DNA of 64,000 nt from Minisyncoccota bacterium (GCA_041664265.1 JBAYLD010000001.1:40051-104050), one strand, 5' to 3'; shown: positions 11,959 through 60,817, counted from the first letter of the stretch. Program-made: numbers and translations. The notes: generated by a model not told the origin, from the letters alone.

Positions 11959-11975
11959 ATTGTTTGGTTGATTTG

Positions 11976-15272: not shown

Positions 15273-15282
15273 TGCTATGTGC

Positions 15283-43104: not shown

Positions 43105-43192
43105 GCCGAGATGGTGGAATGGTAGACACGCGACGCTTAAAACGTTGTAAGCTTTAAATCGGCTTGTGTGGGTTCGAGTCCCACTCTCGGCA
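43105..43192 (+). tRNA. tRNA-Leu (anticodon UAA), type II with long variable arm
   Basis: Acceptor GCCGAGA/TCTCGGC, anticodon loop CTTAAAA, about 19-nt variable arm, T-loop TTCGAGT. Confidence 0.8.
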
Positions 43193-43208
43193 CTGAAGTA
43201 GCATATTA

Positions 43209-44381
43209 TTACCCTTTGATTTCATGAGGCAAATCAAGGATATTTTCGGCTGTCTCCATACTTCCCCGCTGTTTCCTTTGAATTTCCAGCCACCGGTTGA
43301 CCACCGGTTGCCCAAAATCCGCCGCAAGAGCAGCTCTCGGATTCAAGAGATCTATCGCTGCCCGGTAGGAGGAAGGTGCCACATGCGCGTATCGCATCGT
43401 GGTCATGATAGAGGTATGCCCCAAGAGTTCTTTTATTGTGTTCAGGGGCACGCCCTTCATGGAGAGGTGCGAGGCGAACGTGTGCCGCAAGGCGTGCCAG
43501 GTTATCCTCCTGATCCCTGCTTTTTTACATGCTCGCGTCAGTGCGGCACCTAAGCGGCATGCGCTGAAAGGATGCTGCCGTTCATCAGCAAAGACAAACC
43601 CTGATTTTCGCTGCCTTCTGAGCAGGATATCGTAGACATCAACATCAAGCGGAATGGGACGCTCTCGGTTGCTCTTTGGAGATGTCAGCGTCTTGGCACG
43701 ATCGACAAGCGAGTGCCGCACCACCAGGTTTTGGTTTTGCCAGTCGATGGATGTCCACTGGAGCCCCCGCAACTCCCCCAGCCGCATGCCGGTCCGAAGG
43801 CCGGTGAGAATTAAGTCGTACAACACGCCATTCAGCATTCCCTTCGCTCCTATAAGCAACAACTTGGCATCCGCTTCGGAGAGATAGTTTGTCTCAGGCG
43901 GCGGGCACACGAGCCGCTTTATCCGCGGAGGCGTTGATTCAAGCTGTAGCCATTCGTAGGCCGTGGTGAGGCAGGTGTTCAACACGGTTAGGCGATTGTT
44001 CACTGTCTTCCTCGCCGCCCCCTTTTGAAGCGCGTGTGCCTTGTACCGTTCAACATCATGCGCTGTGATTTGCCCGAGGGGCATCTTGCCGAAGAATGGC
44101 AGGAGCGATGATCTGAGGATGTATCTCTTGGTTTGGCATTCCGAAGCCTTGTTATTAGAGATTACGTACTCGTCAAACCAACGTTGGGCAAATTGCGCAA
44201 ATGTCTGTCCTGATTCGTTCGGTTTGGCATTTATGTCCTCACCGTGAGCCAATTTTCGCCGCAAGACAACTTCGTATGCAAGCGCTGCCGCTCTTGAATT
44301 CTCGGGACTTCGCTTTCGATAACGGACATAGTTGAACCAGAAGTCGATCCACCAGGAATTCTTTATCTTTCGTACTGCCAT
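43209..44381 (-). CDS. Tyrosine-type site-specific integrase
   Basis: C-terminal catalytic region 'HALRHTFASHLSMKGVPLNTIKELLGHTSIMTTMRYAHV' (R..HxxR...Y). tRNA-adjacent. Confidence 0.85.
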   Translation of the reverse strand: MAVRKIKNSWWIDFWFNYVRYRKRSPENSRAAALAYEVVLRRKLAHGEDINAKPNESGQTFAQFAQRWFDEYVISNNKASECQTKRYILRSSLLPFFGKMPLGQITAHDVERYKAHALQKGAARKTVNNRLTVLNTCLTTAYEWLQLESTPPRIKRLVCPPPETNYLSEADAKLLLIGAKGMLNGVLYDLILTGLRTGMRLGELRGLQWTSIDWQNQNLVVRHSLVDRAKTLTSPKSNRERPIPLDVDVYDILLRRQRKSGFVFADERQHPFSACRLGAALTRACKKAGIRRITWHALRHTFASHLSMKGVPLNTIKELLGHTSIMTTMRYAHVAPSSYRAAIDLLNPRAALAADFGQPVVNRWLEIQRKQRGSMETAENILDLPHEIKG

Positions 44382-44387: not shown

Positions 44388-44651
44388 TCAGCCTATGGAC
44401 TCAACCCGGTGCTTCTGAAGGAACAACAGCAGGCCCCTTCTCGCGAAGCGGACGCTACCGCCCACTTTGTAGAACGGAATGCGCCGCTGTTCTTGTAATC
44501 GTCGTACGCTTGATACGGATATTTTTAGGAATTTCGCAGCTTCAACAACGGTTAGCAATTCCGGCACCGGGTCGAATCCTGTCGGTTTATTTACATCTGT
44601 CAAAGAGCAGTGCGCGGTCGGTGCGACCGGCGGGCTTTGTAATCCTACCAT
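44388..44651 (-). CDS. Excisionase / AlpA-family HTH DNA-binding protein
   Basis: 'LLTVVEAAKFLKISVSSVRRL...IPFYKVGGSVRF' Xis/MerR-like winged HTH. Directly upstream of the integrase. Confidence 0.6.
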   Translation of the reverse strand: MVGLQSPPVAPTAHCSLTDVNKPTGFDPVPELLTVVEAAKFLKISVSSVRRLQEQRRIPFYKVGGSVRFARRGLLLFLQKHRVESIG

Positions 44652-44760: not shown

Positions 44761-44789
44761 TTGACAAGCAAAAAAGGTCTCCCTATACT
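44761..44789 (+). promoter_or_regulatory. Near-consensus sigma70 promoter TTGACA-17-TATACT driving the 5-gene operon
   Basis: -35 at 44761-44766 and -10 at 44784-44789, with the ATG at 44823. Confidence 0.5.
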
Positions 44790-44822
44790 TTGAGCCATAA
44801 AAAGCAATGTCATATTAATAAT

Positions 44823-45416
44823 ATGAAACAAAGCAAGCCTATAGACGAACTCCCGAAAAACGCTAAATTTGTCCTGCCTCCATTTGCTATCGTGATGAAG
44901 GTTGGGCCTCATTCTGGGATGTCGTTAAACGAGATTGTTGAATCGAAGCACAAAGAAGAGGCGCTATACGGAGTACATTATTGGGGGTACTCCGGCAATC
45001 TTTGTCATCCCAGGCGTGTCCTTGATTTTGTTTCGTATGTTTTATCATTCAAGCAAGGGCCACCTAGTTTGCTGCTTATTGAAACAGAAAGTAATTACAG
45101 TACAAGTATTGGTCATATCAACTGCTTCTCAATAGATAGTAAAAACTATGAAAAGTTTGATGGCCCAATTCAACTGCAAGGAGCTCAATATGCATTTGTC
45201 GCACGAAACCTTCACAGGGTGGATCGTGATTTTCAACTCGACCGTTATTCAGTCATAAGTGGCAAGAACGATGGCAAGCCGCTAAGCTTTCATCTCCGGC
45301 AACGAGTCAATAAGGCCTTTGTTAAGAGGACCCCGCGAGCCAAGACATCTCACATATCGCATCTTGCGTACATGGCACAACTTTCTGCGCCGTATGTGTT
45401 TTGGCTAAAGGAATAG
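44823..45416 (+). CDS. Hypothetical protein (first gene of the island operon)
   Basis: ORF with no recognised motifs. Start at MKQSKP (44823) downstream of the consensus promoter. Confidence 0.4.
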   Translation: MKQSKPIDELPKNAKFVLPPFAIVMKVGPHSGMSLNEIVESKHKEEALYGVHYWGYSGNLCHPRRVLDFVSYVLSFKQGPPSLLLIETESNYSTSIGHINCFSIDSKNYEKFDGPIQLQGAQYAFVARNLHRVDRDFQLDRYSVISGKNDGKPLSFHLRQRVNKAFVKRTPRAKTSHISHLAYMAQLSAPYVFWLKE

Positions 45417-45419
45417 GCT

Positions 45420-46262
45420 ATGAATAAGCGAGGATTAATACTAGACCTCGATAATACATTATACAATTGGGTCGATGCTTTTCTTCCTAGTTTCCGAGCT
45501 ATGATTCACAAGTTATCACACGAGCTTAGCATAGAGGAAGAGGAGATACTTGACGATTTCCGTGATGTATATCTAAAGCACGGCACCGTAGAGTACCCCA
45601 GAGCTGTCAATGAGCTAACCCTTTGGGACAGAAACAAGATCTCTGATAAAGAAAGAAAACGAATTTCTGAGATTGTCGACAAAGTCTTCTCCATCAATTA
45701 CCGGAGTCATTTACGTCTTTTTCCCAATGTACGAGAAGTTTTAATGTGGACTCGAGAAGAAGGGATCCCGGTAATAGGTCTTTCTGATGCTCTTGAACGT
45801 TGGGTCTGTTATCGGCTCAGAATCCTTGGAATCGAGAAGTACTTTGCAGGCCTCTATACATGGCAGCATGATCAATGGTTTGATGATCGTCATCCGCATC
45901 ATAGTTCTATAAAAACACGCGTCCAGCTTAATAGCAACGAATTGAAACCAAATTTGGAAGTTGTTAATCGAGTTCTTGCGGATTTCTCATTAAACAGGGA
46001 AACCACATTCATGGTGGGAGATAGCCTATCAAAGGATATCGCTGTAGCACAGACTGCTGGGGTCAATGATGTCTGGGCCCGATATGGCACACGCCCGCAT
46101 GAGCTAAATCTTAATACTCTTCGACGGATTACTCCTTGGTCTGAGTCGGAGAAGGCTAAGGAGAAGAACGCCAAGTTACACATTGTACCTACTTTCATAA
46201 TTGATGACTTTCATGAACTAATCGGCCTGATCGGCACTCGTAGACCAAAGCTTTTTGACTAG
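45420..46262 (+). CDS. HAD-superfamily hydrolase (phosphatase-like)
   Basis: Motif I 'LILDLDNTLY' (DxDxT), motif IV 'MVGDSLSKDI'. Confidence 0.7.
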   Translation: MNKRGLILDLDNTLYNWVDAFLPSFRAMIHKLSHELSIEEEEILDDFRDVYLKHGTVEYPRAVNELTLWDRNKISDKERKRISEIVDKVFSINYRSHLRLFPNVREVLMWTREEGIPVIGLSDALERWVCYRLRILGIEKYFAGLYTWQHDQWFDDRHPHHSSIKTRVQLNSNELKPNLEVVNRVLADFSLNRETTFMVGDSLSKDIAVAQTAGVNDVWARYGTRPHELNLNTLRRITPWSESEKAKEKNAKLHIVPTFIIDDFHELIGLIGTRRPKLFD

Positions 46263-46268
46263 GAAAGA

Positions 46269-47351
46269 TTGATGCACTTCGGAAATGTGGAACTTGATGC
46301 AGCATTTATAGATGCAGAGGATATCGTCGCCAAGCTGCATTTCCTCGACCAAATGGAAAGACGATGGCCATATAATCCTGCAAAGGGCGTCTCTTTGTCC
46401 GAGCGTGTGGCCTGCTCCCTAACCCAACTTCCACCTGAACTACAGCAATTCGCTCTCGCCGTGTTCACTAATGTAATATACCTCCCAGATACACTCCTAA
46501 GAGAGTCATGGAGCTACCTGGCAAGCAAGATCGCTAGAGACCTCGGTATCACAGTATGTAACCTTTTCGAGCAATCTCACCTCTTGGAAGTTGATCCTAG
46601 TGGCCTTATCCCGACTTTTCTCCATGAAAATAAAGTGCATGGCCGCCTCGATACAGATCACTTCTCTCGTCTGCAGTCAATTGATGAATTGGCTAACAAT
46701 CTGCGGCTTATTGGTTTATCTGACAAACAAGAAGAGGGATCTGTACATGGAATTCGTTTGGCTTTTAGTCGACCATTTTGGCTACTTCTCTCAGATAACG
46801 TTCTCAGCGGAACCTCGGTCGCATCCGATCTAAGCCGCTGTGACCGTCTGATTAATGCTTACTCGAAGCTCGGTACTCCAAAGATAATCCCAGTAACGCA
46901 AGTTCTTACGTCCTCAGCCGAATCCTCCGTGCTTTCATCCTGGACCACTACATTCGCTCTCCGCTTTGACAAACAGTTTCAAGTTCTGCCTGGTAATGAA
47001 GATTGTAGCCTATTTAGCAGACGGGATACATTAGACGGAGCCATACGTCTTTGTGACTGGTTTGCTAGCCAAGATTGGTTTTCTAAGGACGATCGCTTAA
47101 CCGCGACCTTACAGAAGAGCGGAGACAACATGGCATATGGTTATAAAAGGGGAGGATGGACTATTGTCACTCCAAACTGCCCCACAAACTCACTTCCAAT
47201 TCTATGGTATGAGCGGGAAGGTGTATATAAGGCCCCCTTTCCAAGGATAATGTCAAGGACATCTCAAATGAAAGGGCACGGAGAGGAGTTGACGGAGGAC
47301 GCCATCTCCTTGGCGCCCCGAGTTCTCAAGAAGTTAGGGGTGGTTGACTAA
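46269..47351 (+). CDS. Hypothetical protein, paralog A (N-terminal 'FxNVELDAAF' motif)
   Basis: ORF only. Shares an N-terminal motif with the next gene. Confidence 0.4.
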   Translation: MMHFGNVELDAAFIDAEDIVAKLHFLDQMERRWPYNPAKGVSLSERVACSLTQLPPELQQFALAVFTNVIYLPDTLLRESWSYLASKIARDLGITVCNLFEQSHLLEVDPSGLIPTFLHENKVHGRLDTDHFSRLQSIDELANNLRLIGLSDKQEEGSVHGIRLAFSRPFWLLLSDNVLSGTSVASDLSRCDRLINAYSKLGTPKIIPVTQVLTSSAESSVLSSWTTTFALRFDKQFQVLPGNEDCSLFSRRDTLDGAIRLCDWFASQDWFSKDDRLTATLQKSGDNMAYGYKRGGWTIVTPNCPTNSLPILWYEREGVYKAPFPRIMSRTSQMKGHGEELTEDAISLAPRVLKKLGVVD

Positions 47352-48409
47352 TGCGCACTTACTTTGATGGAGTCGAACTAGATGCAATATTCCATTCCAT
47401 CCGAGATATGCCAATTGTCCTTGTTGCTACACCAAACTATGAGGAACGTTCGATTGGGTTCTCGCAATGGTTTCTCCATACTTGTCACTCTCAAAAGATT
47501 GATCCAGCAAAAATATTCGCTCAATTCTTGTGGCCTCAAGGAACCTCTTCGCGAGTCGATCTTCTGGAAAAATTAAAAATATCTCAGATTGATAAGCTTT
47601 CTGAACAGCTTCAGTATTGCGCATGGACCCGATCTGTCTTCAGCTACCCAGATGACTTTAATGAAAGACAGGTTATTGATTTAATTCATGAAGCAACTAA
47701 TAAATTTAGCGATGAGCCCTTTAGTCTGATTATAGATATTTCCTGTATGCCTAGGCGAGTAATAGTATCTGTGTGTGATGCTGTTGTCGAGAAAATTAGA
47801 TGTGTTGATAAAGCAGTCCGCCCCCTAGTTTTTTTCGTATACGCGTCGCCGAAAAAGTATGCGGCGATGCGGTACGCGCAGAATATCGGCAATGTTAAAG
47901 GTTATTTCTCTGGCCGTCCCATTCACAATTGCCCTTCCGATCATGTGACCGCTCTGATTTTTGCAAGTTTACAGGGGTACGAAGGCAAAGTGCTCTATGA
48001 TGAGGTCCGAAGCAGGATCAGAAGCTCGGTAACTACATTCGTGGCGGTAAGTGGAGCAGATTACCAAACATCGCTCGCGACAATGAGAGCAAACCAATTC
48101 CTTATGGAGCAGAGAGACATAGACGTCTCGTACTATTTTTCTTTAATGGATGGAATGGAGAAATTAGCAAAACGCATCGAAGCCGAAGGTTTGGTGGGGG
48201 GAGGGAGTGGACTTTCTAGAATGGTGTTAGTCGCTCCCTTCGGCCCAAAGGTTTTTACACTTGGGGCATATTTCATGCTTTCTAACCTACGCTCAGTCAA
48301 TGACTCCATCCAAACTGAAATTGCCCACGTCAGCGGCTTTCAGTATCTTTCATTGTACTCGCTCGGGCTAAGTCATTTTAACGTATTTAAACTATGTGTG
48401 GAGATCTGA
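47351..48409 (+). CDS. Hypothetical protein, paralog B (N-terminal 'FDGVELDAIF' motif)
   Basis: ORF only. Start overlaps the stop of the previous gene. Confidence 0.4.
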   Translation: MRTYFDGVELDAIFHSIRDMPIVLVATPNYEERSIGFSQWFLHTCHSQKIDPAKIFAQFLWPQGTSSRVDLLEKLKISQIDKLSEQLQYCAWTRSVFSYPDDFNERQVIDLIHEATNKFSDEPFSLIIDISCMPRRVIVSVCDAVVEKIRCVDKAVRPLVFFVYASPKKYAAMRYAQNIGNVKGYFSGRPIHNCPSDHVTALIFASLQGYEGKVLYDEVRSRIRSSVTTFVAVSGADYQTSLATMRANQFLMEQRDIDVSYYFSLMDGMEKLAKRIEAEGLVGGGSGLSRMVLVAPFGPKVFTLGAYFMLSNLRSVNDSIQTEIAHVSGFQYLSLYSLGLSHFNVFKLCVEI

Positions 48410-49067
48410 TTCTGTGACGGTAATAAAAATCTGCGATGTGAGAAAGCCGGAGGTAGCATCTTTTTGTGCTTCATGCGGTGCAGAAATGATTGGCCTACAC
48501 TGTATTTGGCACCCTCCGTCCGGAGAGAAATTAGCAACTTTCCAGGATATTTTTAGAGTAGTGCAAGGGCGATGCAAGTGTGTTTTAGTTACCCGTCAAA
48601 AGGATATTCCAACAATCATAGACATGATACAAGGGATGGCATGGGACTATATCCAACTGCATTCGGACTGGGCCCTTAGCAGTATCAATCAGCTTAGGGC
48701 GAGACTGAGTGAAAGCGGCAGATCACTTGGCTTAATCGGTGTTATTGAGATCAGTATGCAAGGCATAACACGAATTAAAAAAATTGCAGAAGCTACAGAT
48801 ATTCTTCTTCTTGATAGCTCGATTCGTGGTGGAAGTGGGACATCCGCGTCATCTGCATTACTTGAACAGGCGGTATCGCATATTCAATCCAAGCCCTTTT
48901 TAATTGCCGGGGGACTTCGAGAAGAGAATGTTTCTCATATAATAGAAAAATATCACCCGTGGGGAGTCGATGTTCAGTCCGGGGTTGAGAAGCCCGGCGG
49001 CAGCAGAGAAAAAGATTTCGACATGATACGGGGGTTCATCTCTACCGTGCGATCCCCAACACGATGA
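48396..49067 (+). CDS. Phosphoribosylanthranilate-isomerase-like (TrpF-fold) TIM-barrel enzyme, standalone with no other trp genes
   Basis: 'IKICDV' (compare IKICGI), 'YIQLHSD' (LHG), 'LLDSSIRGGSGTS', 'LIAGGLREENV...WGVDVQSGVEKPGGSREKD' match the TrpF C-terminal phosphate-binding pattern. Confidence 0.5.
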   Translation: MWRSDSVTVIKICDVRKPEVASFCASCGAEMIGLHCIWHPPSGEKLATFQDIFRVVQGRCKCVLVTRQKDIPTIIDMIQGMAWDYIQLHSDWALSSINQLRARLSESGRSLGLIGVIEISMQGITRIKKIAEATDILLLDSSIRGGSGTSASSALLEQAVSHIQSKPFLIAGGLREENVSHIIEKYHPWGVDVQSGVEKPGGSREKDFDMIRGFISTVRSPTR

Positions 49068-49762: not shown

Positions 49763-50497
49763 TTAAACTTCCTTTTCCACGCTCGCGATGATATCTCGAA
49801 CAAGACCATCCAAATTCCAGAACGGGTCACCGGTATGGAACCGCGAAAGCTTCTCCACAATTTTTTTGTGTTCGGGCGCACACATTGATGGTAATCCGAA
49901 AACTGACAGCCATGGTTGGGAGTTTTGTACAACATTATTGAAAATTTCCGAGACATGCCATGAAAACATGTCGTAGTCATCTCCGCGATATCGTGGGTAA
50001 TGTTCGAAGAAATATTCGTAAAAAATAAAATGTAATAATTCGTGCGCAATGACAACATTTACGTACCGTTTGTTGCGGTGGCGATATGGAACTTGGAAGG
50101 TTTTATCATCAAGAAATCGCGGATAAATACCCCAGATCGTAGAATATGCGATGTACTTCCCTTTTGGCCAAGGATAATCGCCGAAGATTTGTCGAACGAG
50201 TTCATCAAACTTTGGTTCAATGTCCCGCCATTTGCGCTCATAGTGTGCAAGATTTGAGGCAATACTTTGGGCCAAATCTTCATACTTGTTTTTTACGAAT
50301 CGAATGACATCGGTACGGCAACCGACAAAGCGTACGCCTTGAAACCACTTTTTGCACGTTTGATATTTATCGAGTACGGCCCATTTTAAACTTCTACCGC
50401 TATTATATTCTGCATCTGAGACAAATCTGAAAAAGCTGGCGACATCCTTATTTGCGTCAGCTCTAAATATTATCCGTTTGCGTAATCTATATCCCAC
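49763..50497 (-). CDS. Hypothetical protein with HExxH motif ('VVIAHELLHFIFYEYFFEH'); candidate metallopeptidase downstream of the radical-SAM gene
   Basis: HELLH plus a downstream Glu. Same strand, 57 nt after the rSAM stop. Confidence 0.35.
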   Translation of the reverse strand: MGYRLRKRIIFRADANKDVASFFRFVSDAEYNSGRSLKWAVLDKYQTCKKWFQGVRFVGCRTDVIRFVKNKYEDLAQSIASNLAHYERKWRDIEPKFDELVRQIFGDYPWPKGKYIAYSTIWGIYPRFLDDKTFQVPYRHRNKRYVNVVIAHELLHFIFYEYFFEHYPRYRGDDYDMFSWHVSEIFNNVVQNSQPWLSVFGLPSMCAPEHKKIVEKLSRFHTGDPFWNLDGLVRDIIASVEKEV

Positions 50498-50554: not shown

Positions 50555-51940
50555 TTAAGCGGCAATTGACGTGCTATACGTTTGCCAAATTAACCACTCA
50601 AGCGAAAGGTTACTGTGTGGGCAAATTCTCCGATCGATATTCCATCGGTCACCGGTCTTCAGTTCAGCACTGGCCGGGCAGCCACCACCACAAATGCCTA
50701 ACGACTTACAATCCAAGCATCCTTCCATGAAGATTGGAGAGCGTTTCTTCCAATTCTCGAAAAGACCATCTTGAACCGGATCATAAGTCGGGTCAAGAAC
50801 TGATCCTCGGAAGTATGTCCTGGGTTTTACGAAGTCCTGGCAAGCACCGATCCGCCCATCAGGAGCAATGACGATCTGACTTCCATTGACGCCACAATCA
50901 ATAAAAATAGGCTCTCGTTTAACAAACGCCCGAGCCTTTCGCATCATCCGTTCTTCGTAAATGCCACGTTCACGAAAAACTTCGAATGCTTTTATGAGGC
51001 AAATTGCCGCAGCCTGATAATAATCTTCCCCTGTAGACATCTGCGGACTGTAATGTAGAATGTTAAAACTCAGACCATCCCGAATCCCGAGTTCCTCTAC
51101 AAAGTATGTGAGAACCTCATCGAAGTTTTCCACCACTTCCGGCGTGAGGGTTGCAGAAAGGCCAACCATTGCTCCGCATTCGCGCCCTAACTTGTACGCT
51201 CGTTCAGCTTTTTCGAAAGTTCCGCCTTTCCCTCGTTTTGCGATTCGGTGCAAATCATTGAGATGCCGAGGGCCATCCAACGAAATACCAATCGTGACCT
51301 GATGATCTGCAAGAAACTGTGCCATATCGCGTGTCAATAATGCGCCATTGGTCACTATCACCATTTTCGTCGTTTCCGGCAATGAACCAGACGACTTCAA
51401 CTCTTCTGTCCTCGTGACTGCTTTTTGCACTCCGGGCGAATTTAAGAGCGGCTCACCGCCATAGAGATGGATTACGCGTTTCGCCGATTTGCTGTCGCCA
51501 TACCGCGTAGTAAGGCGGGCGAACGTCTCTAGACCGTGAGAAATTACTTCGTCGCTCATCTTTGATGCCTTGAACGATAGTGCCTTTGGCGTGTCCTCAA
51601 AACAGTAGCGACACTGGAAATTGCAGCCATCGGTCAAAAGCAAATAACAGAGATTCATACGAACGTTTTCAACCAGAGACAGACGGGATTGAGCCAGTAG
51701 ATCATCATCCTGCGTCGCTGTACTCACCAACAACTGTTCGGCGATTAATTGATCAATCACATCACCGAATACCGATTTTAGTAGCGTTCGGGAGGGTGTG
51801 CTGTGTACAGCTGAGAGCAAACAATTTCCCTGCTCCTCCGGGAGGAATACCAGATTCAAGGTAAGAGAATTTATCAACGCCATCACCCCTTCACGTACCG
51901 ACGATTTACACCAACGAGATACGCATAATTCTTCTGACAT
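50555..51940 (-). CDS. Radical SAM / SPASM-domain peptide maturase
   Basis: 'CNFQCRYC' CxxxCxxC about 100 aa from the N-terminus, with an RRE-like extension before it. C-terminal SPASM Cys cluster 'CLDCKSLGICGGGCPASAE'. 461 aa. Confidence 0.8.
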   Translation of the reverse strand: MSEELCVSRWCKSSVREGVMALINSLTLNLVFLPEEQGNCLLSAVHSTPSRTLLKSVFGDVIDQLIAEQLLVSTATQDDDLLAQSRLSLVENVRMNLCYLLLTDGCNFQCRYCFEDTPKALSFKASKMSDEVISHGLETFARLTTRYGDSKSAKRVIHLYGGEPLLNSPGVQKAVTRTEELKSSGSLPETTKMVIVTNGALLTRDMAQFLADHQVTIGISLDGPRHLNDLHRIAKRGKGGTFEKAERAYKLGRECGAMVGLSATLTPEVVENFDEVLTYFVEELGIRDGLSFNILHYSPQMSTGEDYYQAAAICLIKAFEVFRERGIYEERMMRKARAFVKREPIFIDCGVNGSQIVIAPDGRIGACQDFVKPRTYFRGSVLDPTYDPVQDGLFENWKKRSPIFMEGCLDCKSLGICGGGCPASAELKTGDRWNIDRRICPHSNLSLEWLIWQTYSTSIAA

Positions 51941-52704: not shown

Positions 52705-53448
52705 TTAATTGGCTATCTTGAGGATGGTGTTATGAAGCTGGATAAGCTTTTCCATAATGGATATGGGTGGGCTGGATTTCAGGCATTCAGTGCCTGCATT
52801 GTAGAAGCTCCATATGTTGCGGGGCCGGAATTCCTCAAAGCTCGGCCTCAACCATTCAGCTTTCAAGACTGGCAGTTGCCGGGGACTGATGATGTTGTTT
52901 CCGAACAATACCCCCATCAACTGGAAGGCTTCCAGGTTGTCCAGTGGCAGGGCCTTGAATGCCGCCGCGTCCGCCACGATCTGCTCGTAATTCTTCTGGC
53001 TTCTATAGATAGTGGCGATGGCGGTTTCTTCCAGTTCCATCCAGACATTCTTGGTGTGCTTTCTCATTACGACAATTTCGCCGCTTAAGGCCAGGTTGTC
53101 GCAGACGAAGACCGTAGCGCCAATCGCCATCCCGATGGCCATGGAGCGGTCGTAGGAATTACGGAACGCGATTGACAGGCCCAAATCTGCCTTGTCGTTC
53201 TTGAACTTCAAGACCGCAAAGAGCTGGTTTCCCTGGCGGGCAATGCCGTAATTCTCTCCGATCAGGACGTAATCCCGCAGAATGTCCTGGCTGATGGTCA
53301 GGAATTTGTCGGCCAGGTGATAATGGCTGACCGGCACATAGCTTTCCGTGGGCTCAGGCAGGGGGATCAGGTCCAGGCGATCCCTGGTGACCAATTCCCC
53401 GCCCCGGTGCATCAATATCTCGTTCATTTTTTTCCTCCTTTCTCTCAT
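52705..53448 (-). CDS. DUF932-like phage/plasmid-associated protein
   Basis: 'LGLSIAFRNSYDRSMAIGMAIGATVFVCDNLALSGE' resembles the conserved core of DUF932 proteins found with RadC on mobile elements. Confidence 0.35.
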   Translation of the reverse strand: MRERRKKMNEILMHRGGELVTRDRLDLIPLPEPTESYVPVSHYHLADKFLTISQDILRDYVLIGENYGIARQGNQLFAVLKFKNDKADLGLSIAFRNSYDRSMAIGMAIGATVFVCDNLALSGEIVVMRKHTKNVWMELEETAIATIYRSQKNYEQIVADAAAFKALPLDNLEAFQLMGVLFGNNIISPRQLPVLKAEWLRPSFEEFRPRNIWSFYNAGTECLKSSPPISIMEKLIQLHNTILKIAN

Positions 53449-53891
53449 ATGAGACCCTCTTCCCGGAAGGAAAAGGTCCGGTCGCCGATGATGACATGAT
53501 CCAAGACGTCTATGCCGATGATGGCGCCGGCGTCCTTTAACTGCTTGGTCAGTCTGATATCCTCCTGACTGGGCTTGCAGTTTCCCGACGGGTGGTTATG
53601 ACCGACAACGATAGAGCAGGCGCCGCGCTTAATGGCCCGGCGGAAGACTTCGCGGGGATGGACCAGACTGGCATTCAACGTGCCCAGGCTGACCAGCTCC
53701 ACGAATTTAACCCTGTTGTTGGTGCTGAGCGTGATGACCCAGAAATGCTCTCTTTCCCGCGCAAGGCAGTCGCCCTTTTTGAGGATCTTCCGCAAATGCT
53801 CGGCCACCGCGCCGGAACTGCTCAACTCAACCTTCTCTCTCGACACAATCATAGGCGCCTCCGTTCCTGGTTTGCCTGCTCGCTTCCTCAA
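53445..53891 (-). CDS. RadC-like JAB/MPN-domain protein
   Basis: JAMM motif 'HNHPSG' followed by 'S..D' ('SQEDIRLT'). Confidence 0.7.
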   Translation of the reverse strand: MRKRAGKPGTEAPMIVSREKVELSSSGAVAEHLRKILKKGDCLAREREHFWVITLSTNNRVKFVELVSLGTLNASLVHPREVFRRAIKRGACSIVVGHNHPSGNCKPSQEDIRLTKQLKDAGAIIGIDVLDHVIIGDRTFSFREEGLI

Positions 53892-54156
53892 ACATCCTGA
53901 CGATTTTGTTTTTCGTCAGTCTGTTCTTGCTGCGGATGAGCCGGTTCAGATACTCTGAGATTTCGGCAAATTCCCGATCCTCAGCCTTCATAGCCTCCCA
54001 TTCCGTCAGCAACTCTTTGTTCATCAGGGATTCGACTACGCCGCCGATAATCTGGTTCACTACCTGGGTCATGGGTAGGCCCAGGTAGTGTGCCAAGAAG
54101 TAAAGAAACGGGATGTAATCCGCCCTGATCTTGGGGCTGTAATGTCCTTTGCACAT
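53827..54156 (-). CDS. Hypothetical protein
   Basis: Start at MCKGH (54156) with a GGGAGG SD. Confidence 0.3.
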   Translation of the reverse strand: MCKGHYSPKIRADYIPFLYFLAHYLGLPMTQVVNQIIGGVVESLMNKELLTEWEAMKAEDREFAEISEYLNRLIRSKNRLTKNKIVRMFEEASRQTRNGGAYDCVEREG

Positions 54157-54172
54157 ATTCAGCCTCCCTTCT

Positions 54173-55021
54173 TCAAGCGTACGCGGGAATCGGTTCGTCC
54201 CCACTTCGCTTTTCCACCGGCCCGATTTCCAGATTGCCTTTCCATTCCCCGCAGGGCCGCTCATACTCGCAGTCATTGCAAATGAAGGACTGCCGGGGGA
54301 AGAAGATGCCTGATCTGATCCCTCGGAGCACCTCCTTGGCGAGGTGGAAGAGCCGCGCATAGTCCTGTGGTTTCCGGGCTGCCGCGTCCAGCACATTGAG
54401 CTTGGGCGTCCGGGTCTTCACGAAATTGACCACTTTGAGACGCTGCGGGTCCCTCCCGAAGAGAACGCGGTAGGCGTAGCTGTAGGTGGTGAGTTGGAGC
54501 AGGTCGTCGACGCTGTCCGCATCCAGGGACCTGGCCGAGGTCTTGAACTCCGTGATCGTGTCATTCGCCTCAATCAGGTCGATGAAGCCGTCCAGGGGTG
54601 CGCCCAGGTTCTCGCCGGTGAGCGGGTTGACCAGGGGTACCCGGAAGGGTAATTCCGCCTGCACCATGCCGTTCAGAGGCGAGTGGTAATAGAGGCCGAG
54701 TAATTCCCTGGCCATGACCAGGAGCTTGCTTGCGTCCTCCCCATCCTTGAATCTGATTTTCTCCTCGCACTGCTGGCTGTACCAGTCCGCTTCCAGAATC
54801 CGGTACAGTTGGTCCAGGGTGACTTGGCGCTGTTCGATCCGGTGCTTGTGGAACCAGTCGATCGTAGAATGGATCACGCTGCCGAAAGCCAGGCCCGAAG
54901 ACTTGAAGGGCTTGGGCAGCCGGTCTACATACTGGAAACGATACTTGAGGCCGCAAAGCAGATACACGTTGATCTGGCTTGCCGAGAGGTGGTCGGGTTC
55001 ATAAGCTACCATTGCCGCCAC
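54173..55021 (-). CDS. PD-(D/E)xK nuclease, Cas4/RecB-exonuclease-like, with C-terminal Cys cluster
   Basis: 'GFIDLIEANDTITEFKTS' (D...E-x-K) and C-terminal 'CNDCEYERPCGEW'. Confidence 0.5.
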   Translation of the reverse strand: MAAMVAYEPDHLSASQINVYLLCGLKYRFQYVDRLPKPFKSSGLAFGSVIHSTIDWFHKHRIEQRQVTLDQLYRILEADWYSQQCEEKIRFKDGEDASKLLVMARELLGLYYHSPLNGMVQAELPFRVPLVNPLTGENLGAPLDGFIDLIEANDTITEFKTSARSLDADSVDDLLQLTTYSYAYRVLFGRDPQRLKVVNFVKTRTPKLNVLDAAARKPQDYARLFHLAKEVLRGIRSGIFFPRQSFICNDCEYERPCGEWKGNLEIGPVEKRSGDEPIPAYA

Positions 55022-55385
55022 CTCCCTTCTGCCGGGCCAGCCGTCGTTCTATTTCCCGGCTCGCTTCCATTTTGGTTACCTGCTTGAGATTACCCACCCC
55101 GAAGGTCTTCTTCAGTTCTTCATGGGCCGCGTCCTTCTCGATCCCTTTTTCCGCCAGCAGGCGGAAGAGATACCGCTTCTGCGCATCCGTCATGGGCGCA
55201 TAGTTGCCACCGTCCGCCGGCGGTCTTTCCCCGTTGCCATTGCCTCCTTTCTCACTGTCGCCTTTATCCTCCTTTCCTCCCTGCTGCCCCGTACTGGGAT
55301 CGCCTTTCACGATCAGCCGGATACGGCAGAGCAGCTCTCCGGACTCCGTCCGGAACTCCAAAATCCTTCTTGCTTCCTCGTCCAT
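54999..55385 (-). CDS. Hypothetical protein
   Basis: Start at MDEEARR (55385) with an AGGAGG SD. Confidence 0.3.
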   Translation of the reverse strand: MDEEARRILEFRTESGELLCRIRLIVKGDPSTGQQGGKEDKGDSEKGGNGNGERPPADGGNYAPMTDAQKRYLFRLLAEKGIEKDAAHEELKKTFGVGNLKQVTKMEASREIERRLARQKGGGGNGSL

Positions 55386-55434
55386 AACTTCCTCCTTTCC
55401 TGTCAAAGAACTGTCTGCCTTCAGCGTAGCGAGC

Positions 55435-56883
55435 ATGGGGAAACGGGAAAGGAGGGACGATTTGGCGAAAGAGACAACTCTGATAGACGAGCGGCATTCG
55501 GCTTCAGGCCATAAATACCACTCTTGGCAGGCGCAATCCGGGAACAATAATGGCCGTATGGAACCCGCAAATGACCCCGAGGCCGTGACTTATTTCGCCG
55601 TTACCGACTTCCGGAATATAAGGCAGCGCTTCGGCATCAAGGAAAGGGACCGTTCGGGACATCTCTACATTCTCGGGAAAACGGGCACGGGCAAATCGAC
55701 CTTGATTCAGACCATGGCCGCCTGTGATATAGGGCGAGGGCAGGGCATGGCGCTGATCGATCCCCACGGAGATCTCGCTGAGGCGGTTTTGTCCCAAGTT
55801 CCCGAAAACAGGATAAACGACGTTATTTTTTTCAACCCTTCCGACCTGGACTACCCTATCGCCTTCAATCCCTTGGAAAAGGTCGCGCCGGACAAACATC
55901 ACTTGGTCGTGTCCGGACTCATCTCGGTATTCAAAAAGATATGGAGCGACTTTTGGGGGCCCCGTACGGAGCACCTACTGAGGAACTCCATTCTAGCCCT
56001 TCTGGAGCAACCTGAGGGCACCCTTCTGGATATTCCCTTGCTCCTGACGGACAGAGATTTTCGAGGTCGGGTGTTAGGGAGGGTGACGGACCGGAGCGTG
56101 CGGAACTTCTGGCTCCTGGAATTTGAAGGATACGGCCTGCGGCTCAGGTCAGAAGCCACGGCGCCCATATTGAATAAGATCGGGCAATTCCTGGCCACGC
56201 CCCTGGTCCGCAACATCGTCGGGCAGCCCAGGAGTTCCTTTGACCTTCGCCAAATCATGGACGAGGGGAAGATACTCATTGCCGATTTAGCCAAGGGCCG
56301 GATCGGCGACGACAACTGTTCGCTGCTCGGCTCTCTCCTGGTTACCAAGCTCCAACTGGCGGCCTTAAGCCGGGCCGATATACCGGAAGAGAGTCGGCGG
56401 CCATTTCACCTGTTCATTGACGAAATCCAGAGCTTCCTGACCATGAGTTTTACCGATATTCTGTCAGAGGCCCGCAAATACAAGCTCTATCTGACTATGA
56501 GCCACCAATATATCGGACAGCTCGACGAGCGGATCAGGGCGGCCATTTTCGGCAACGTGGGCACGGTCATATCTTTTCGCGTGGGCGCCGAAGACGCGAA
56601 ATACCTCGCGAGAGAATTTTATCCCACATTCGATGAAACGGACCTGGTGAATATCCCCAACCATCATATCTATCTCAAGATGATGATTGACGGGCAAACC
56701 TCTAAGGCGTTCAGTGCCGTGACCATGCCGCCGGCAGGGAGGACGGCCTCTCATAAAGATGAGATTCTGGCCCTCTCCAGGGCAAGTTTCGGCACGCCCC
56801 GAGCGACGGTAGAGCGACAGATACTCCTTGCTCAAAAGCAAGACGACAGGACACCCGTGCCGAAACAGTCATCCTTCTTTTGA
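55435..56883 (+). CDS. P-loop ATPase of the TraD/VirD4/TrwB coupling-protein or HerA-FtsK type, with no TM segment (ICE remnant)
   Basis: Walker A 'ILGKTGTGKSTL', Walker B 'FHLFIDEIQSF'. About 480 aa. Confidence 0.4.
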   Translation: MGKRERRDDLAKETTLIDERHSASGHKYHSWQAQSGNNNGRMEPANDPEAVTYFAVTDFRNIRQRFGIKERDRSGHLYILGKTGTGKSTLIQTMAACDIGRGQGMALIDPHGDLAEAVLSQVPENRINDVIFFNPSDLDYPIAFNPLEKVAPDKHHLVVSGLISVFKKIWSDFWGPRTEHLLRNSILALLEQPEGTLLDIPLLLTDRDFRGRVLGRVTDRSVRNFWLLEFEGYGLRLRSEATAPILNKIGQFLATPLVRNIVGQPRSSFDLRQIMDEGKILIADLAKGRIGDDNCSLLGSLLVTKLQLAALSRADIPEESRRPFHLFIDEIQSFLTMSFTDILSEARKYKLYLTMSHQYIGQLDERIRAAIFGNVGTVISFRVGAEDAKYLAREFYPTFDETDLVNIPNHHIYLKMMIDGQTSKAFSAVTMPPAGRTASHKDEILALSRASFGTPRATVERQILLAQKQDDRTPVPKQSSFF

Positions 56884-56966
56884 GGGAGGAGCCGGTTAAA
56901 AGATGCCTGCTAAACTCTTTTTTTATACTCCCCACTTGTTGTTCGATAACGGCTTTCAATGAACGA

Positions 56967-58391
56967 TCAAAACTGCCCTTGTTTGAAGCCACCAGGGCCG
57001 AGTGATGCAGTAACGGTATTATTGCTGGCATCAAAGAAGACCTGAATCATCTTTAGTCCTCCGTCATACCAGATGTAGACGATGTAAGGGCTAATATACA
57101 TAGTTTGACTCGGAAGGTATTGGCATCCCATCGTCTGGTTCACTTGTTGAAGGGTCATTCCAATGGCAATGGCATTGTAATTTGCTAAGGTGAAATTACT
57201 TTGGCTGCACGTAGGAGCAATATGTGTACTGCCCGCCACCACAAAATTCGTACCAGTAATATTTGCTCCGCTCACCGTTACGCTTCTACTGGTTGGTGTG
57301 AAGGTGTACCCTGTCAGGGATGGTGTCACCATATAGTCGCCGTTTGCAATATTTGAGAAACTGTAATTTCCGTTTGCGTCAGTGGTTTTGGAATTAGTTG
57401 TGCTGCCGCTCAATACAATCGTCACGCCCGACAGTGCAGCTCCACTCACTGCACCGGAGATGCTGTATGTCGGTGTAACGCCTGTGGAGCCTCCTGATGA
57501 GCCGCTGCAAATGATAGCGGAAAGAGACCCGTCCGAAGCCAGCGTCTGCAAAGCGGTATTCCCAAAGCTTGCCGTGTAAGTCACAATTTCGTTTTTTAAA
57601 TCCGTAGCCATGCTGGCAACAGCATAGGTCGCTGTTCCAGTCACTGTGGCGCTGCCATTCTTTCCGTCTATCACACCATCCTTATAATCATCCGCAAGTT
57701 GCTTGGTAATAGCCAGTGCCGGGCTAGTTAATATTGACGCTCCACCTGTCGCTTTTGCCATTTTTGCCAATGCGGCAAGCTTCGCCGCGTATTTGGAGGG
57801 ATTGCTCGTATCAAGAGCGCCACTTGTTGTGTTTTGGCTTATTAGCTGAGGTGGAGTAGTGATGTCGGTGATCTCGCTCGCCAGCGCCTGCCGAATGGCT
57901 TCATTGGCTGTCTGGATAGCCGTCGTAGTCAATAAAGTAGTTGAGCCCGCAAGGGCTTCTGCACGTTGCAGTGCAATTTCCGTGAGCGCCGTAACACCCA
58001 CTTGAGCTTTGATGCTGTCCAGCGCCACACGCAGCTTTTCTCCAGCCCCGAATGCTGTGTTGGTACCTAAAGCCTCGTCGAAATAAGTCGCAGTGGCATT
58101 GCCTGCAACCTCTACGATTACTGGACCGCTATAGTCAGGAAAGATGAGCGTCGCCTTACCGCTATTATCTGTTTTGACCGTGTTGCCTAGTTGCGTACCG
58201 TCGAGCTTGGTTGCTTTCACGTCAGCACCGTTGATCAGCCCCAAAGACGGCGTGACGACCATAGAGGAATTGGATGCAGGCGGAGCTGCACTAATACCAC
58301 TTGACGAACCGCCACCTCCGCCACATGCGATCAGGCTGATCAGCAGCCAACCCAGAAATGACGTTACCCAGAACAATCTCTTGTTTTCCAC
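56967..58391 (-). CDS. Surface lipoprotein with Cna-B/CarboxypepD_reg-like beta-sandwich repeats
   Basis: Lipobox 'LISLIAC' then a Gly/Ser linker. 'DANGNYSFSNIANGDYMVTPSLTGYTFTP'. Confidence 0.45.
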   Translation of the reverse strand: MENKRLFWVTSFLGWLLISLIACGGGGGSSSGISAAPPASNSSMVVTPSLGLINGADVKATKLDGTQLGNTVKTDNSGKATLIFPDYSGPVIVEVAGNATATYFDEALGTNTAFGAGEKLRVALDSIKAQVGVTALTEIALQRAEALAGSTTLLTTTAIQTANEAIRQALASEITDITTPPQLISQNTTSGALDTSNPSKYAAKLAALAKMAKATGGASILTSPALAITKQLADDYKDGVIDGKNGSATVTGTATYAVASMATDLKNEIVTYTASFGNTALQTLASDGSLSAIICSGSSGGSTGVTPTYSISGAVSGAALSGVTIVLSGSTTNSKTTDANGNYSFSNIANGDYMVTPSLTGYTFTPTSRSVTVSGANITGTNFVVAGSTHIAPTCSQSNFTLANYNAIAIGMTLQQVNQTMGCQYLPSQTMYISPYIVYIWYDGGLKMIQVFFDASNNTVTASLGPGGFKQGQF

Positions 58392-58495
58392 TGGAACACC
58401 TCCTTGAATGCCTGCCTATTTGCAGTTAACCGCTCTTTCTGAACACCAGGCGGTTTGGACAATATTGCTTCTGCGCCTTATGATCGAAAATAGCT

Positions 58496-58511
58496 CCTCT
58501 TTACAAAGAGG
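58496..58511. repeat. Near-perfect 16-bp palindrome cctcttt-ac-aaagagg just 3' of the small serine recombinase gene; a related copy (ctcttt-gt-aaagg) lies at 59303-59316, 5' of it
   Basis: Read directly. The central dinucleotides AC and GT are reverse complements. Confidence 0.4.
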
Positions 58512-58521
58512 CGCTGAGCGC

Positions 58522-59274
58522 CTAAATCATGATTAAATCTTGGTTTTGCCCCCTGACCTCCCCGTAAGTAATAAGCCCCTTTCGGTAAAGGTGTTCCCGG
58601 CCCAAGATCGCGCTTACTTGCCTTTGTGTCCAGGATTTACCATTCCTTCTCAGGTAGCCGCACTCATTTAGAAAGGCGGCGATTTCCCCGGCGCCTTTAT
58701 TTTGCGCATGCAGAGAAAATATGTGTTTTACAACGTCCGCTTCCTGGGGATTCTTCTTTATCTCCCGGCCGTACCTCGTATATCCATAAGGCAACGTCCC
58801 ACCGGCCATCAAGCCTTTTCTTATCCGCTCTTCCCTTCCCTTTTTCAACCGTTCAATGATTTCTTTCCGATTTTCCTCGGCAATGGCAGCCTTGATCTGC
58901 CGTATGAGGACGTCTTTCCTGTTATTACCGTCATAATTTGGCATATCTCCTATGAATATTTTCACCCCGAGATTCTGAAAATCATAGATTAAATTCTCCG
59001 TAAACCGCAGGTTTCTCGATAGGCGATCGAGAGACGAAACAACGACCGCCCCAATCTTACCCGCCTTGCAATCACGGACCAGCCGGCGTAGTTGGTTCCG
59101 GCGTTCCGATGCTCCGCTCTGCGCTTCATCAATGTAATAATCCTCGACGGGCAAGCCGAAAACTTCCGCGTATCGTTCAATATCCCTTCTCTGAATATCA
59201 ATCCCATAGCCTTTCTTTTTTTGTTCCAGGGTGCTTACCCGGCAGTAGGCAGCCACAATTTTCCTTTTCTCCAT
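58522..59274 (-). CDS. Small serine recombinase (resolvase/invertase family)
   Basis: 'VAAYCRVSTLEQ' catalytic Ser, 'VVSSLDRLSRN', C-terminal recombinase/HTH region. 250 aa. Confidence 0.85.
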   Translation of the reverse strand: MEKRKIVAAYCRVSTLEQKKKGYGIDIQRRDIERYAEVFGLPVEDYYIDEAQSGASERRNQLRRLVRDCKAGKIGAVVVSSLDRLSRNLRFTENLIYDFQNLGVKIFIGDMPNYDGNNRKDVLIRQIKAAIAEENRKEIIERLKKGREERIRKGLMAGGTLPYGYTRYGREIKKNPQEADVVKHIFSLHAQNKGAGEIAAFLNECGYLRRNGKSWTQRQVSAILGREHLYRKGLITYGEVRGQNQDLIMI

Positions 59275-59567
59275 GCAATCCGACAGTTAGCCGATTATCG
59301 CAGCTTCTCTTTGTAAAGGGGAACCGAAGGTTAAAGACCTATATTGCTATGGGGCAAGGATGTCAAGCAAAATGTCAAGCCAAAATTGAGCATCATTTGC
59401 CAAATATTTCGACCTTGGTAACCATCCCATCGTCGAAAACTTTGCCAAAACTTCTAACTGCTTTATTAAAAAACTTAAAACCCACGTTTAAAATTCATTT
59501 CATCCTTATAAATGCGACTGTTTTAGACTACATTCCCTCAACTTTACAAAGTTGCATAGAGGGGCTA

Positions 59568-59813
59568 ATGGTTCATTCTTTTCGGTCCGATGAACTACAG
59601 AAAATTGTCTCAGAGGCCGTCGAATATTTTCTAAAAGGTCCCATTGAATCTTTCCCGACCTTCAAACCATTCATAGGTGGGGGCGTATACACCCTTTATT
59701 ACATGGGCGACTTCCCTATTTACAGCAATATCAAAGTAGCGGAGGTTAAGCCGGGCTCCGTTCCTATTTACATGGGAAAATCAATCCAAGCGGCTGGCGA
59801 ACGGCAAGAATAA
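59568..59813 (+). CDS. Hypothetical small protein
   Basis: ORF only. Internal Met of a longer ORF (59109-59813) that overlaps the recombinase on the opposite strand. Confidence 0.2.
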   Translation: MVHSFRSDELQKIVSEAVEYFLKGPIESFPTFKPFIGGGVYTLYYMGDFPIYSNIKVAEVKPGSVPIYMGKSIQAAGERQE

Positions 59814-60146: not shown

Positions 60147-60443
60147 ATGGCAATGACAAACCAAGACGCAGCAACAGCGAGCAAGGCTAAACCTGGCGAC
60201 AACAACGAAAAGTATTTCTATTTCGTGGACGGGGAAAAGTTTGACTCCGAGAATGAATTTACCACGGGTGCGATTATCAAGTCCCGGCTGGCGGAAGCAA
60301 AGCGTAGCTATGCGTTGTTCCTCGAGGGCCACGACAACGATCCCGACACATTGATCGGCGATGACACCAGCATCGACCTGGGAAAAGAAAAAGGCCCGAA
60401 GCGATTTTACACCGTTCCACCCGCCAGTTTTGGCAGCCCATGA
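60147..60443 (+). CDS. Multiubiquitin-domain (bacterial Ubl, beta-grasp) protein
   Basis: 'KYFYFVDGEKFDSENEFTTGAIIKSRL...YALFLEGHDNDPDTLIGDDTSIDLGKEKGPKRFYTVPPASFG' fits the Multiubiquitin-family pattern. First gene of the operon. Confidence 0.5.
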   Translation: MAMTNQDAATASKAKPGDNNEKYFYFVDGEKFDSENEFTTGAIIKSRLAEAKRSYALFLEGHDNDPDTLIGDDTSIDLGKEKGPKRFYTVPPASFGSP

Positions 60444-60817
60444 CTCCTGTCGAAGAGCAGTTCGAGATTCTTCGAGGTTATGAAAATGGTGCCGTCCTAC
60501 AAAAGTTACCGGACGGTTCTCATCTGATCACCATCGGAGGAGTCAAACTCCCTTCCGGCTGGTCCAAGGCGTTTGTTGGCGTTAAATTCCTCGCTCCTGT
60601 CGGCTATCCTTTCTCCAAGCCCGACTGCTTCTGGACAGACCCAGATTTGCGCTTGGCCAATGGTAACCCCCCAATGAACACAGGCTCAAACCCTATACCT
60701 CACGTCAATTCTGGAGGTCTGTGGTTCTCGTGGCACGTGGCATCGTGGAATCCCAATTTTGACAATCTCCTAACGTACTGGTACGTCATTAAACGGAGGC
60801 TCTGTGATCCCCGATGA
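60440..60817 (+). CDS. E2-like (UBC-fold) ubiquitin-conjugating enzyme homolog (Prok-E2 type)
   Basis: 'PVGYPFSKPDCFW' parallels the eukaryotic E2 'YPFKPP' core. Overlapping start/stop with its neighbours. Confidence 0.45.
   Translation: MTPVEEQFEILRGYENGAVLQKLPDGSHLITIGGVKLPSGWSKAFVGVKFLAPVGYPFSKPDCFWTDPDLRLANGNPPMNTGSNPIPHVNSGGLWFSWHVASWNPNFDNLLTYWYVIKRRLCDPR

Follow-up and report, generated by a model that had tools for sequence, protein, structure and literature searches.

A rare five-gene cassette that joins a PRTase-CE protein, a tandem CARF protein, and a TrpF-family isomerase on an integrative element of a Minisyncoccota bacterium, and its predicted role as a nucleotide-targeting conflict system

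An element inserted next to a tRNA-Leu gene of a Minisyncoccota bacterium, in a stretch of DNA of 64,000 nt (GCA_041664265.1 JBAYLD010000001.1:40051-104050; hereafter, the window), carries an operon of five co-directional open reading frames (ORFs) on the plus strand (44823-49067), which are designated here as g1 to g5. The genes encode, in this order, a protein of no known family, a phosphatase of the HAD superfamily, a phosphoribosyltransferase (PRTase) of the PRTase-CE family, a tandem CARF protein, and an isomerase of the TrpF family. The comparison of the homologous loci indicates that they form a rare, horizontally moving cassette that appears to be conserved as a unit, and that is, on balance, probably a self-contained anti-phage (conflict) system with a nucleotide-targeting effector, which most likely starves the infected cell of its nucleotide building blocks. 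Each part is of a familiar type (PRTase-CE, CARF, HAD, or TrpF family), and it is their combination, with the function predicted for it, that appears to be new.

The third gene encodes the putative effector of the system. The g3 protein matches the Pfam family PRTase-CE (PF24390), in which "CE" stands for "conflict effector", over residues 157-326 (41.0 bits, against a gathering cut-off of 27), and the same match is found in 18 of the 19 clusters of its homologues. The protein contains a motif that resembles the loop that binds 5-phosphoribosyl-1-pyrophosphate (PRPP), LLLSDNVLSGTS, and a C-terminal motif, GGWTIVTPNCPTNSLPILWY. Its family conserves WLLLSDNVLSGTS and GGWTIVTPNCPTNSLPILWY, the former of which has the features of a PRPP loop, that is, a hydrophobic strand that leads, through one or more acidic residues, to a short turn ([ST]-G-[ST]) for phosphate binding. 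Residues D176, N303, P305, T306, and N307 are invariant in the 19 sequences of the family, while N177 is conserved in at least 90%. The PADLOC retron model PRTase_III-A also matches g3 weakly (2.3e-5), over the C-terminal motif (residues 283-326).

The g4 protein has the Rossmann-like CARF fold in two copies within a single chain. Its best fold match is Can1, aligned over both CARF domains, and its nearest structural relatives are Can1, Csa3, Csx1, Csm6, Card1, and Can2, all of which are CRISPR ancillary proteins that bind cyclic oligoadenylate (cOA), while the hidden Markov model (HMM) that matches g4 is derived from the CRISPR-associated CARF set. The two halves of the protein have no sequence similarity to each other, and the internal repeat is undetectable by sequence. 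When the family profiles of g3 and g4 were compared with the sequences of solved structures, only chance-level matches were recovered, with no solved PRTase for g3. The remote-homology and structure searches, which had been recommended in an earlier note on this DNA, identified g3 as a PRTase-CE protein and g4 as a tandem CARF protein, but provided only weak matches for g1. The same note had taken g3 and g4 for paralogs, a relationship that is ruled out by the BLASTP comparison, in which the only match is out of register (E 0.007), and by the profile-profile comparison (hhalign), which returned a probability of 0.09%. The VELDA.F string said to be shared by their N-termini is indeed present in both proteins of this genome, but is only loosely kept within each family.

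The g5 protein matches the Pfam family PRAI (4.2e-21) and the TrpF structure 5lhf in PDB (4.9e-10), yet it falls below the cut-off of all 13 NCBIfam TrpF models, of which the lowest cut-off is 172 bits, with the best equivalog score being 95.2 bits, from a model that requires 215. Given this match to the family and the scores below every equivalog cut-off, g5 would be a phosphoribosyl-amine Amadori isomerase of the TrpF (PRAI) family, rather than an orthologous TrpF. The alignment of g5 with seven homologues, which also included a manually entered T. maritima TrpF sequence, shows that the catalytic Cys (KIC) and the GG(S/T)G phosphate site (GGSG or GGTG) are invariant in the family, and that the Asp of the LLxD motif is kept in 8/8 family sequences, where MAFFT places it one column off.

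The g2 protein is a HAD phosphatase (Pfam HAD_2, 7.8e-16), which is matched along its full length by the PADLOC defense model PDLC03008, "Hydrolase" (7.7e-30), presumably linked to the Hydrolase-3TM system of the P4 satellites. The four HAD motifs (I-IV; DxDxT, S/T, K, and GDxxxD) are all intact, and residues D9, D11, T13, S122, K176, G200, D201, and D206 are at least 95% conserved across 14 distinct members. The identification of a HAD protein by its DxDxT motif (here, D9-L-D11-N-T13) and of a TrpF fold (the PRAI match) had already been made in the earlier note, and both hold. The first gene had been described there as a DUF protein, but g1 has no match in Pfam, among the DUFs or elsewhere, and its fold matches, to the YTH, EVE, and McrB N-domain readers of modified bases, are weak and non-significant, and weakly suggest a base-binding fold of the PUA/YTH/EVE type. 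Proteins of the g1 family are also found alone, without the other four genes, in the loci designated L008 (8001-8528), where the neighbors are an AAA_33 kinase and a PPDK_N protein, and L009 (8001-8564), where they are CYTH, NUDIX, and ASCH genes. The family therefore exists outside the cassette, among nucleotide-handling genes.

The operon is as tightly packed as had been supposed, with junctions of -1 to 9 nt, that is, 3 nt between g1 and g2, 9 nt between g2 and g3 (6 nt with the TTG start), a 1-nt overlap (TAATG) between g3 and g4, which is also present in L001, L004, and L013, and 4 nt between g4 and g5 (a 14-nt overlap with the alternative start). The near-perfect predicted promoter (Table 1) is likewise confirmed as the sole site with at least 11 of the 12 consensus positions on the two strands of the window, in comparison with 0.4 such sites expected per window, and 0.19 per 9.8-kb island, in Markov simulations. 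This score refers to the sigma-70 consensus, and the promoter usage of the candidate-phylum host may itself be different. The operon does lie in the most AT-rich part of the DNA, with positions 45001-46000 having the lowest GC of the whole 64 kb (0.420), and its overall GC of 0.447, against 0.53 in each flank, is atypical for the host. Terminator-like hairpins are no more frequent than expected by chance, and no terminator is assigned here, while the Rfam scan returned no match within or adjoining it.

Table 1. Features of the five-gene operon and of its immediate upstream context, in window coordinates.
Feature	Position	Strand	Remarks
tRNA-Leu(taa)	43105-43193	+	context, outside the five-gene system
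tyrosine integrase	43209-44381	-	context, outside the five-gene system
HTH_17 excisionase-like gene	44388-44651	-	context, outside the five-gene system
predicted sigma-70-type promoter	44761-44789	+	TTGACA-17 nt-TATACT; 11/12 match; 34 nt 5' of the g1 ATG
g1	44823-45416	+	197 aa; no known family; conserved first gene of the cassette
g2	45420-46262	+	280 aa; HAD-superfamily phosphatase
g3	46272-47351	+	359 aa; PRTase-CE; in-frame TTG at 46269
g4	47351-48409	+	352 aa; tandem CARF (SAVED-like pseudo-dimer) sensor protein; no effector domain
g5	48414-49067	+	217 aa; TrpF-family (PRAI) isomerase; GTG start preceded by GGAGA
g5, alternative start	48396	+	GTG

The close families of g4 and g3 comprise 14 and 19 clusters, respectively, among 5.8 billion proteins, and the profile search with g4, in 1.84 billion representatives, recovered 211 relatives, 75 of them below 1e-30. 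When the HMMs of the five families were mapped onto all the loci retrieved, 13 distinct loci, from at least three phyla, proved to carry all of the five components, arranged in one of two gene orders. The order g1-HAD-PRTaseCE-CARF2-PRAI, where CARF2 is the tandem CARF protein, is found in 11 distinct loci (the window, L001, L004, L006, L007, L013, L015, L017, L019, L020, and L021), while L011 and L025 are rearranged, with PRTaseCE-CARF2-PRAI converging on HAD-g1. The hosts include a Paceibacterota metagenome-assembled genome (MAG), an Acidobacteria MAG, and Pseudobacteroides cellulosolvens. Apart from two weak HAD matches in Listeria phages, the plasmid, phage, and viral-contig collections contain no relatives of g2, g3, or g4. 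The pattern search of the GTDB species genomes recovered one locus, by a method that misses divergent members, such as that of Pseudobacteroides, while the broad alignment of 95 sequences was too divergent for finding loci.

The components are also found as fusion proteins, in the combinations CARF2+PRAI (P0100), CARF2+HAD (P0183), and PRAI+PRTase-CE+CARF2 (P0197), the last of which continues into the start of a HAD-like motif. A third gene order, PRTaseCE-CARF2-g1-PRAI(extended), is found in L024 and also in L026, which is cut by the end of the contig. In L012, the order is PRAI(extended)-SDR-PRTaseCE-CARF2-ZnADH, with a short-chain dehydrogenase/reductase (SDR) and a zinc-dependent alcohol dehydrogenase (Zn-ADH) in place of the HAD protein and g1, and L018 carries a PfkB kinase.

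Some of these loci have peculiarities of their own. The PRAI proteins of L012 (223-1611) and L024 (4806-6101) share a C-terminal extension of approximately 250 aa (BLASTP 5e-5 between the two), which has no counterpart in Pfam or among the five families of the cassette; a ribulose-phosphate-epimerase-like identity was considered, but finds no support in Pfam even at E <= 10. In L026, the gene directly upstream of that of PRTase-CE (4764-6479) encodes a protein of 571 aa that includes a canonical Pribosyltran domain (PF00156, 3.9e-7), which makes this locus a variant with two different PRTases. The locus of Pseudobacteroides cellulosolvens (L007; LGTC01000001.1) contains a perfect inverted repeat of approximately 4.3 kb (1-4291 and 11160-15449), formed by two abutting pairs of 100% complementarity (2666 and 1630 nt), which holds the tail of the cassette (the C-terminus of CARF2 and the PRAI gene) and flanking genes, so that, on the far side of a Hachiman-like HamB helicase, a truncated CARF2 and a complete second copy of PRAI are oriented toward the cassette. 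This repeat could be either a real inversion or duplication, or an assembly artifact.

The analysis of the genomic neighborhood, also suggested in the earlier note, revealed BREX, Hachiman, Druantia, RADAR-like, HerA/NurA, and HD-CE genes adjoining the cassette in unrelated genomes. The neighbors include BREX PglZ/BrxL in L001, a HerA(DUF87)-NurA pair with a DNA methylase in both L004 (9873-14591) and L026 (152-4745), HerA/NurA with DruA (2e-91) in L011 (192-4415), and Hachiman HamB (9e-72) in L007. A RADAR RdrB-like deaminase (1.5e-33) and an HD-CE-HSP90 protein are found in L021, an IetA-like AAA protein in L017, PDC-S60 and an nSTAND protein in L019, a second PRTase-CE with an ORC/CDC6-like protein in L018, and integrases in the window and L025. 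The HerA-NurA pair directly adjoins the cassette in three unrelated loci (L004, L011, and L026), which may be more than a chance co-location. The earlier note had left the function of the operon between a small-molecule, nucleotide, or DNA-modification module and a defense system, and a defense system acting on nucleotides is the option that fits best a cassette conserved amid defense genes.

The sequences show the families and folds of the proteins, their intact catalytic motifs, and the linkage, fusions, and defense-gene setting of the genes, whereas, in the mechanism proposed here, we infer the anti-phage activity, the g3-g4 complex, the order of the reactions, the acceptor, the trigger, and depletion, rather than a product, as the weapon. 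The tandem CARF protein, g4, would be the ligand sensor, translationally coupled to g3 and probably in a complex with it. Once a nucleotide-like ligand derived from the infection is bound, g3 would consume PRPP, moving its 5-phosphoribosyl group onto a nitrogen acceptor that still bears an N-H after glycosylation. The g5 isomerase would then convert the ribosylamine to 1-amino-1-deoxyribulose-5-phosphate by an Amadori rearrangement, a step that would be effectively irreversible, and the g2 phosphatase would strip the phosphate from this product, from nucleotides, or from both. The net result would be the collapse of the PRPP and nucleotide supply, which would halt the replication of the phage through abortive infection or growth arrest, while g1 would be an accessory protein, possibly a co-sensor that binds bases or nucleotides. 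As the Amadori step needs an N-H on the glycosylated nitrogen, the acceptor would have to be an amine or amidine, and not a ring nitrogen, and the SDR and Zn-ADH of L012 would fit further processing, given that the Amadori product carries a keto group.

The statement that these genes fit no recognizable pathway was too strong, since a PRTase followed by a TrpF-type isomerase repeats the logic of TrpD-TrpF and HisG-HisA, here under a CARF sensor. In both pairs, a PRPP-dependent N-glycosylation is followed by an Amadori rearrangement in a (beta-alpha)8 phosphate-binding barrel. The likeness lies in the proposed chemistry and in the Cys/Asp dyad of TrpF, which g5 keeps, but g5 is non-orthologous, is not accompanied by TrpC or HisF/H, and is linked to a CARF protein, island-borne, and rare. 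The first step of the histidine pathway is also a precedent for the phosphoribosylation of the adenine of ATP, and a bolder conjecture, which we put forward as a long shot, is that the obligatory TrpF-type partner gives away the reaction of the defense PRTases, which might attach a phosphoribosyl group to an amino group of some abundant base or nucleotide (such as the adenine N1/N6 of ATP), with the product locked by the Amadori step and the CARF gate being independent of any cyclase. If this were true, the products would be a new class of immune metabolites (1-deoxyribulosyl-amine nucleotides), formed by a "suicide histidine-like pathway" that drains PRPP and its acceptor together.

A number of known systems share parts of this arrangement. 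The PRTase-CE family itself was reportedly named by Nicastro, Burroughs, Iyer, and Aravind in NAR in 2023. Like its other members, g3 fills the effector position of predicted immune operons, and the homologues in every locus match the family, although here the protein is always accompanied by a tandem CARF protein and a TrpF-family isomerase. In Retron-Eco11, the PRTase effector has a non-canonical PRPP loop (T-D-T), and its activation lowers PRPP by approximately 50%. The cassette is similar to this type III-A retron in its non-canonical loop (VVILTDTIGSGNQ in Eco11, WLLLSDNVLSGTS in g3) and in the Pro/Asn-rich region of its C-terminal motif, a weak and local likeness found by the PADLOC PRTase_III-A HMMs (E 2e-5). 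However, a reverse transcriptase is absent from both the cassette and its flanks, the cassette also has no non-coding RNA or multicopy single-stranded DNA (msDNA) and no winged-helix domain, and control would be exercised by the CARF sensor, instead of by msDNA.

The PUA-Cal-HAD system of E. coli ECOR28 drains deoxynucleoside triphosphates by means of a CE effector and a HAD protein coupled to a sensor of nucleotides, and the cassette likewise has a sensing module, a conflict effector, and a dedicated HAD protein that would act in sequence on the nucleotide pools. The spacing of the catalytic and cap residues of the HAD proteins runs parallel in the two systems (24 residues from K to GD, 5 from D to D, and 8 from DxDxT to W), but the effector of the cassette is a PRTase, instead of a calcineurin-like phosphoesterase fused with the PUA-like sensor, none of its five proteins has a calcineurin-like domain, a tandem CARF and a TrpF-like protein are added, and the putatively PUA-like g1 is a separate gene. 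In Chp, the CARF-HAD protein of type III-A CRISPR, the HAD domain dephosphorylates ATP, dATP, and IMP; the best fold match of g4 to Can1 and the CARF2+HAD fusions of its family run parallel to these proteins, from which it differs in having no nuclease or other effector domain, and no Cas10 or other cas genes nearby. The toxicity of ShosT needs the binding of PRPP and disrupts purine metabolism, with the acceptor being an open question, according to the 2026 ShosT structure paper. The cassette shares a PRTase-fold component, toxic in the ShosTA/DprA-PRTase systems, but has no DprA-like antitoxin or fused pyrophosphatase. The combination of a cyclase-less tandem CARF protein, a PRTase effector, and an Amadori isomerase was not found in the literature searched, which did not include the 2023 PRTase-CE paper, and this paper, with its many gene-neighborhood themes, may already catalog the arrangement.

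Several points weigh against an anti-phage function of this type. The neighborhoods examined revealed neither a cyclase nor any other enzyme that would generate a signal, and g4 could bind a substrate or product, instead of a signal ligand. The PRPP loop of g3 reads S-D-N, where the canonical form is D-D, and catalysis is assumed. The similarity of g1 to PUA-like domains is non-significant, and three loci (L006, L013, and L015) have no obvious defense neighbors. In addition, the biosynthesis of a product would account equally well for the strong consensus promoter and for a set of enzymes that form a forward pathway.

This biosynthesis is the strongest of the alternatives, and represents a smaller but real chance that the cassette is a chemical defense or a small-molecule pathway, in which a nucleoside-like product (an antiviral analog, a toxin, or a signal), rather than the depletion of PRPP, is what matters. 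The route would lead from PRPP and an amine, through ribosylamine-5-phosphate and 1-deoxyribulosylamine-5-phosphate, to a dephosphorylated product, with the CARF-like protein acting as a regulator, scaffold, or product sensor. The order of PRTase, TrpF-type isomerase, and phosphatase mirrors TrpD-TrpF and HisG-HisA, the full TrpF catalytic dyad is retained in g5, the variant loci have what would be tailoring enzymes (SDR and Zn-ADH in L012, the PfkB kinase in L018, and the extended PRAI in L012 and L024), and the promoter looks constitutive, as well as strong. However, enzymes fused with a tandem CARF sensor have the architecture of ligand-gated immune effectors, the relatives of PRTase-CE studied to date work through toxicity or PRPP depletion, and genes for export, self-resistance, or the supply of precursors do not travel with the cassette.

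The relatives of g4 among the cOA-binding proteins, and the CRISPR-associated origin of the HMM that matches it, lead to the idea that the cassette serves as an accessory effector for type III CRISPR or CBASS, with the genes of this cyclic-oligonucleotide pathway located elsewhere, and that, lacking a sensing capacity of its own, it would be fired only by the ligand of a distant Cas10 or CD-NTase. Effectors of the CARF-HAD type are known from type III-A systems, but no cas or cyclase genes, including cas10 and CD-NTase, were called beside the cassette in approximately 17 distinct loci, with flanks of up to 8 kb, and the cassette passes intact from one phylum to another on islands, a sign of autonomy that makes this dependence improbable.

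It is less probable still that the cassette is involved in the metabolism of modified bases, and that it makes, salvages, or detoxifies a hypermodified nucleobase or nucleotide of DNA or RNA, with g1 as the reader of the modification. This reading draws on the weak g1 matches to YTH, EVE, and the McrB N-domain, the stand-alone homologues near NUDIX, ASCH, and CYTH genes, and the DNA methylases that often adjoin the cassette. The fold match is non-significant, however, no transglycosylase and no polymerase-associated or DNA-binding protein is encoded by the cassette, and the methylases are part of the adjacent HerA/NurA or restriction-modification units. The familiar metabolic nature of PRAI and HAD proteins might, finally, suggest that these are routine housekeeping genes, for the synthesis of tryptophan or histidine or for the salvage of nucleotides, lying on the island by chance, which is very improbable and already contradicted, given that g5 is far below every TrpF equivalog cut-off (95 bits against at least 172), the remaining trp and his genes are absent, the g4 family counts only 211 representatives among 1.84 billion clusters, the GC departs from that of the host, and the surroundings are variable, defense-rich islands, and not the conserved chromosomal setting that the earlier note would have expected of such enzymes.

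For the PRTase-fold effectors known from the retrons, ShosTA/PsyrTA, and Ophion, the acceptor and the actual chemistry are open questions, as the 2026 ShosT structure paper makes explicit. The cassette ties an effector of this type to a phosphatase and a TrpF-type Amadori isomerase, which some genomes even join in one polypeptide, and the TrpF-type partner would therefore limit the product of the PRTase to a phosphoribosylamine that bears an N-H, which can be checked by mass spectrometry. A system of this kind would be the first immune role for an enzyme of the TrpF fold, as well as an example of a CARF sensor without a visible cyclase, and a rare, predicted multi-enzyme defense system in a bacterium of the candidate phyla radiation, with its minimal metabolism. 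If the depletion of PRPP is all that it does, the system would be a modest extension of the nucleotide-depletion theme.

The setting of the operon on a tRNA-Leu island, described previously, is borne out by the tRNA-Leu(taa) gene, which is followed by the tyrosine integrase and the HTH_17 excisionase-like gene (Table 1); a tRNA-Cys gene, together with tRNA-Leu(taa), is also found directly upstream of the operon. The search of the window for an att repeat of the 3' end of the tRNA-Leu found none, and no informative direct repeats. The inserted element appears to run well beyond the low-GC block, and resembles an integrative (and possibly conjugative) element more than it does a small island, because genes typical of mobile elements continue at 52705-59813, where DUF932, RadC/JAB, a PD-(D/E)XK nuclease, a TraG/VirD4-like coupling ATPase, a serine recombinase, and an Eco29kI-like fragment are found.

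Other genes of the window are also of interest. On the minus strand, a radical SAM/SPASM peptide maturase (50555-51940) that resembles the FibroRumin maturase TIGR04136 (5e-76; 256 bits, against a cut-off of 400) adjoins the gene of a 244-aa protein with an HExxH motif and a faint SprT match (49763-50497), and the two may be a pair of the type that makes ribosomally synthesized and post-translationally modified peptides (RiPPs). At the far end of the window, three plus-strand genes encode a Prok-E2_E protein (60440-60817), a fusion of JAB and ThiF/E1 (60814-62139), and a TCAD9/APH-like protein (62143-63666), a set that is a prokaryotic ubiquitin-like conjugation conflict system. The PADLOC scan of 40 large ORFs of the window also recovered a type II methylase (1e-116), a type II restriction enzyme (5e-100), a helicase (2e-182), and PDC-S06 elsewhere in the window, and the AAA_13 ATPase at 22219-24501 is one candidate ORF for these matches. 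The LOOT RNA family of Rfam (RF03000) is matched at 15292-15418, on the plus strand, with 56.4 bits against a gathering score of 46.4.

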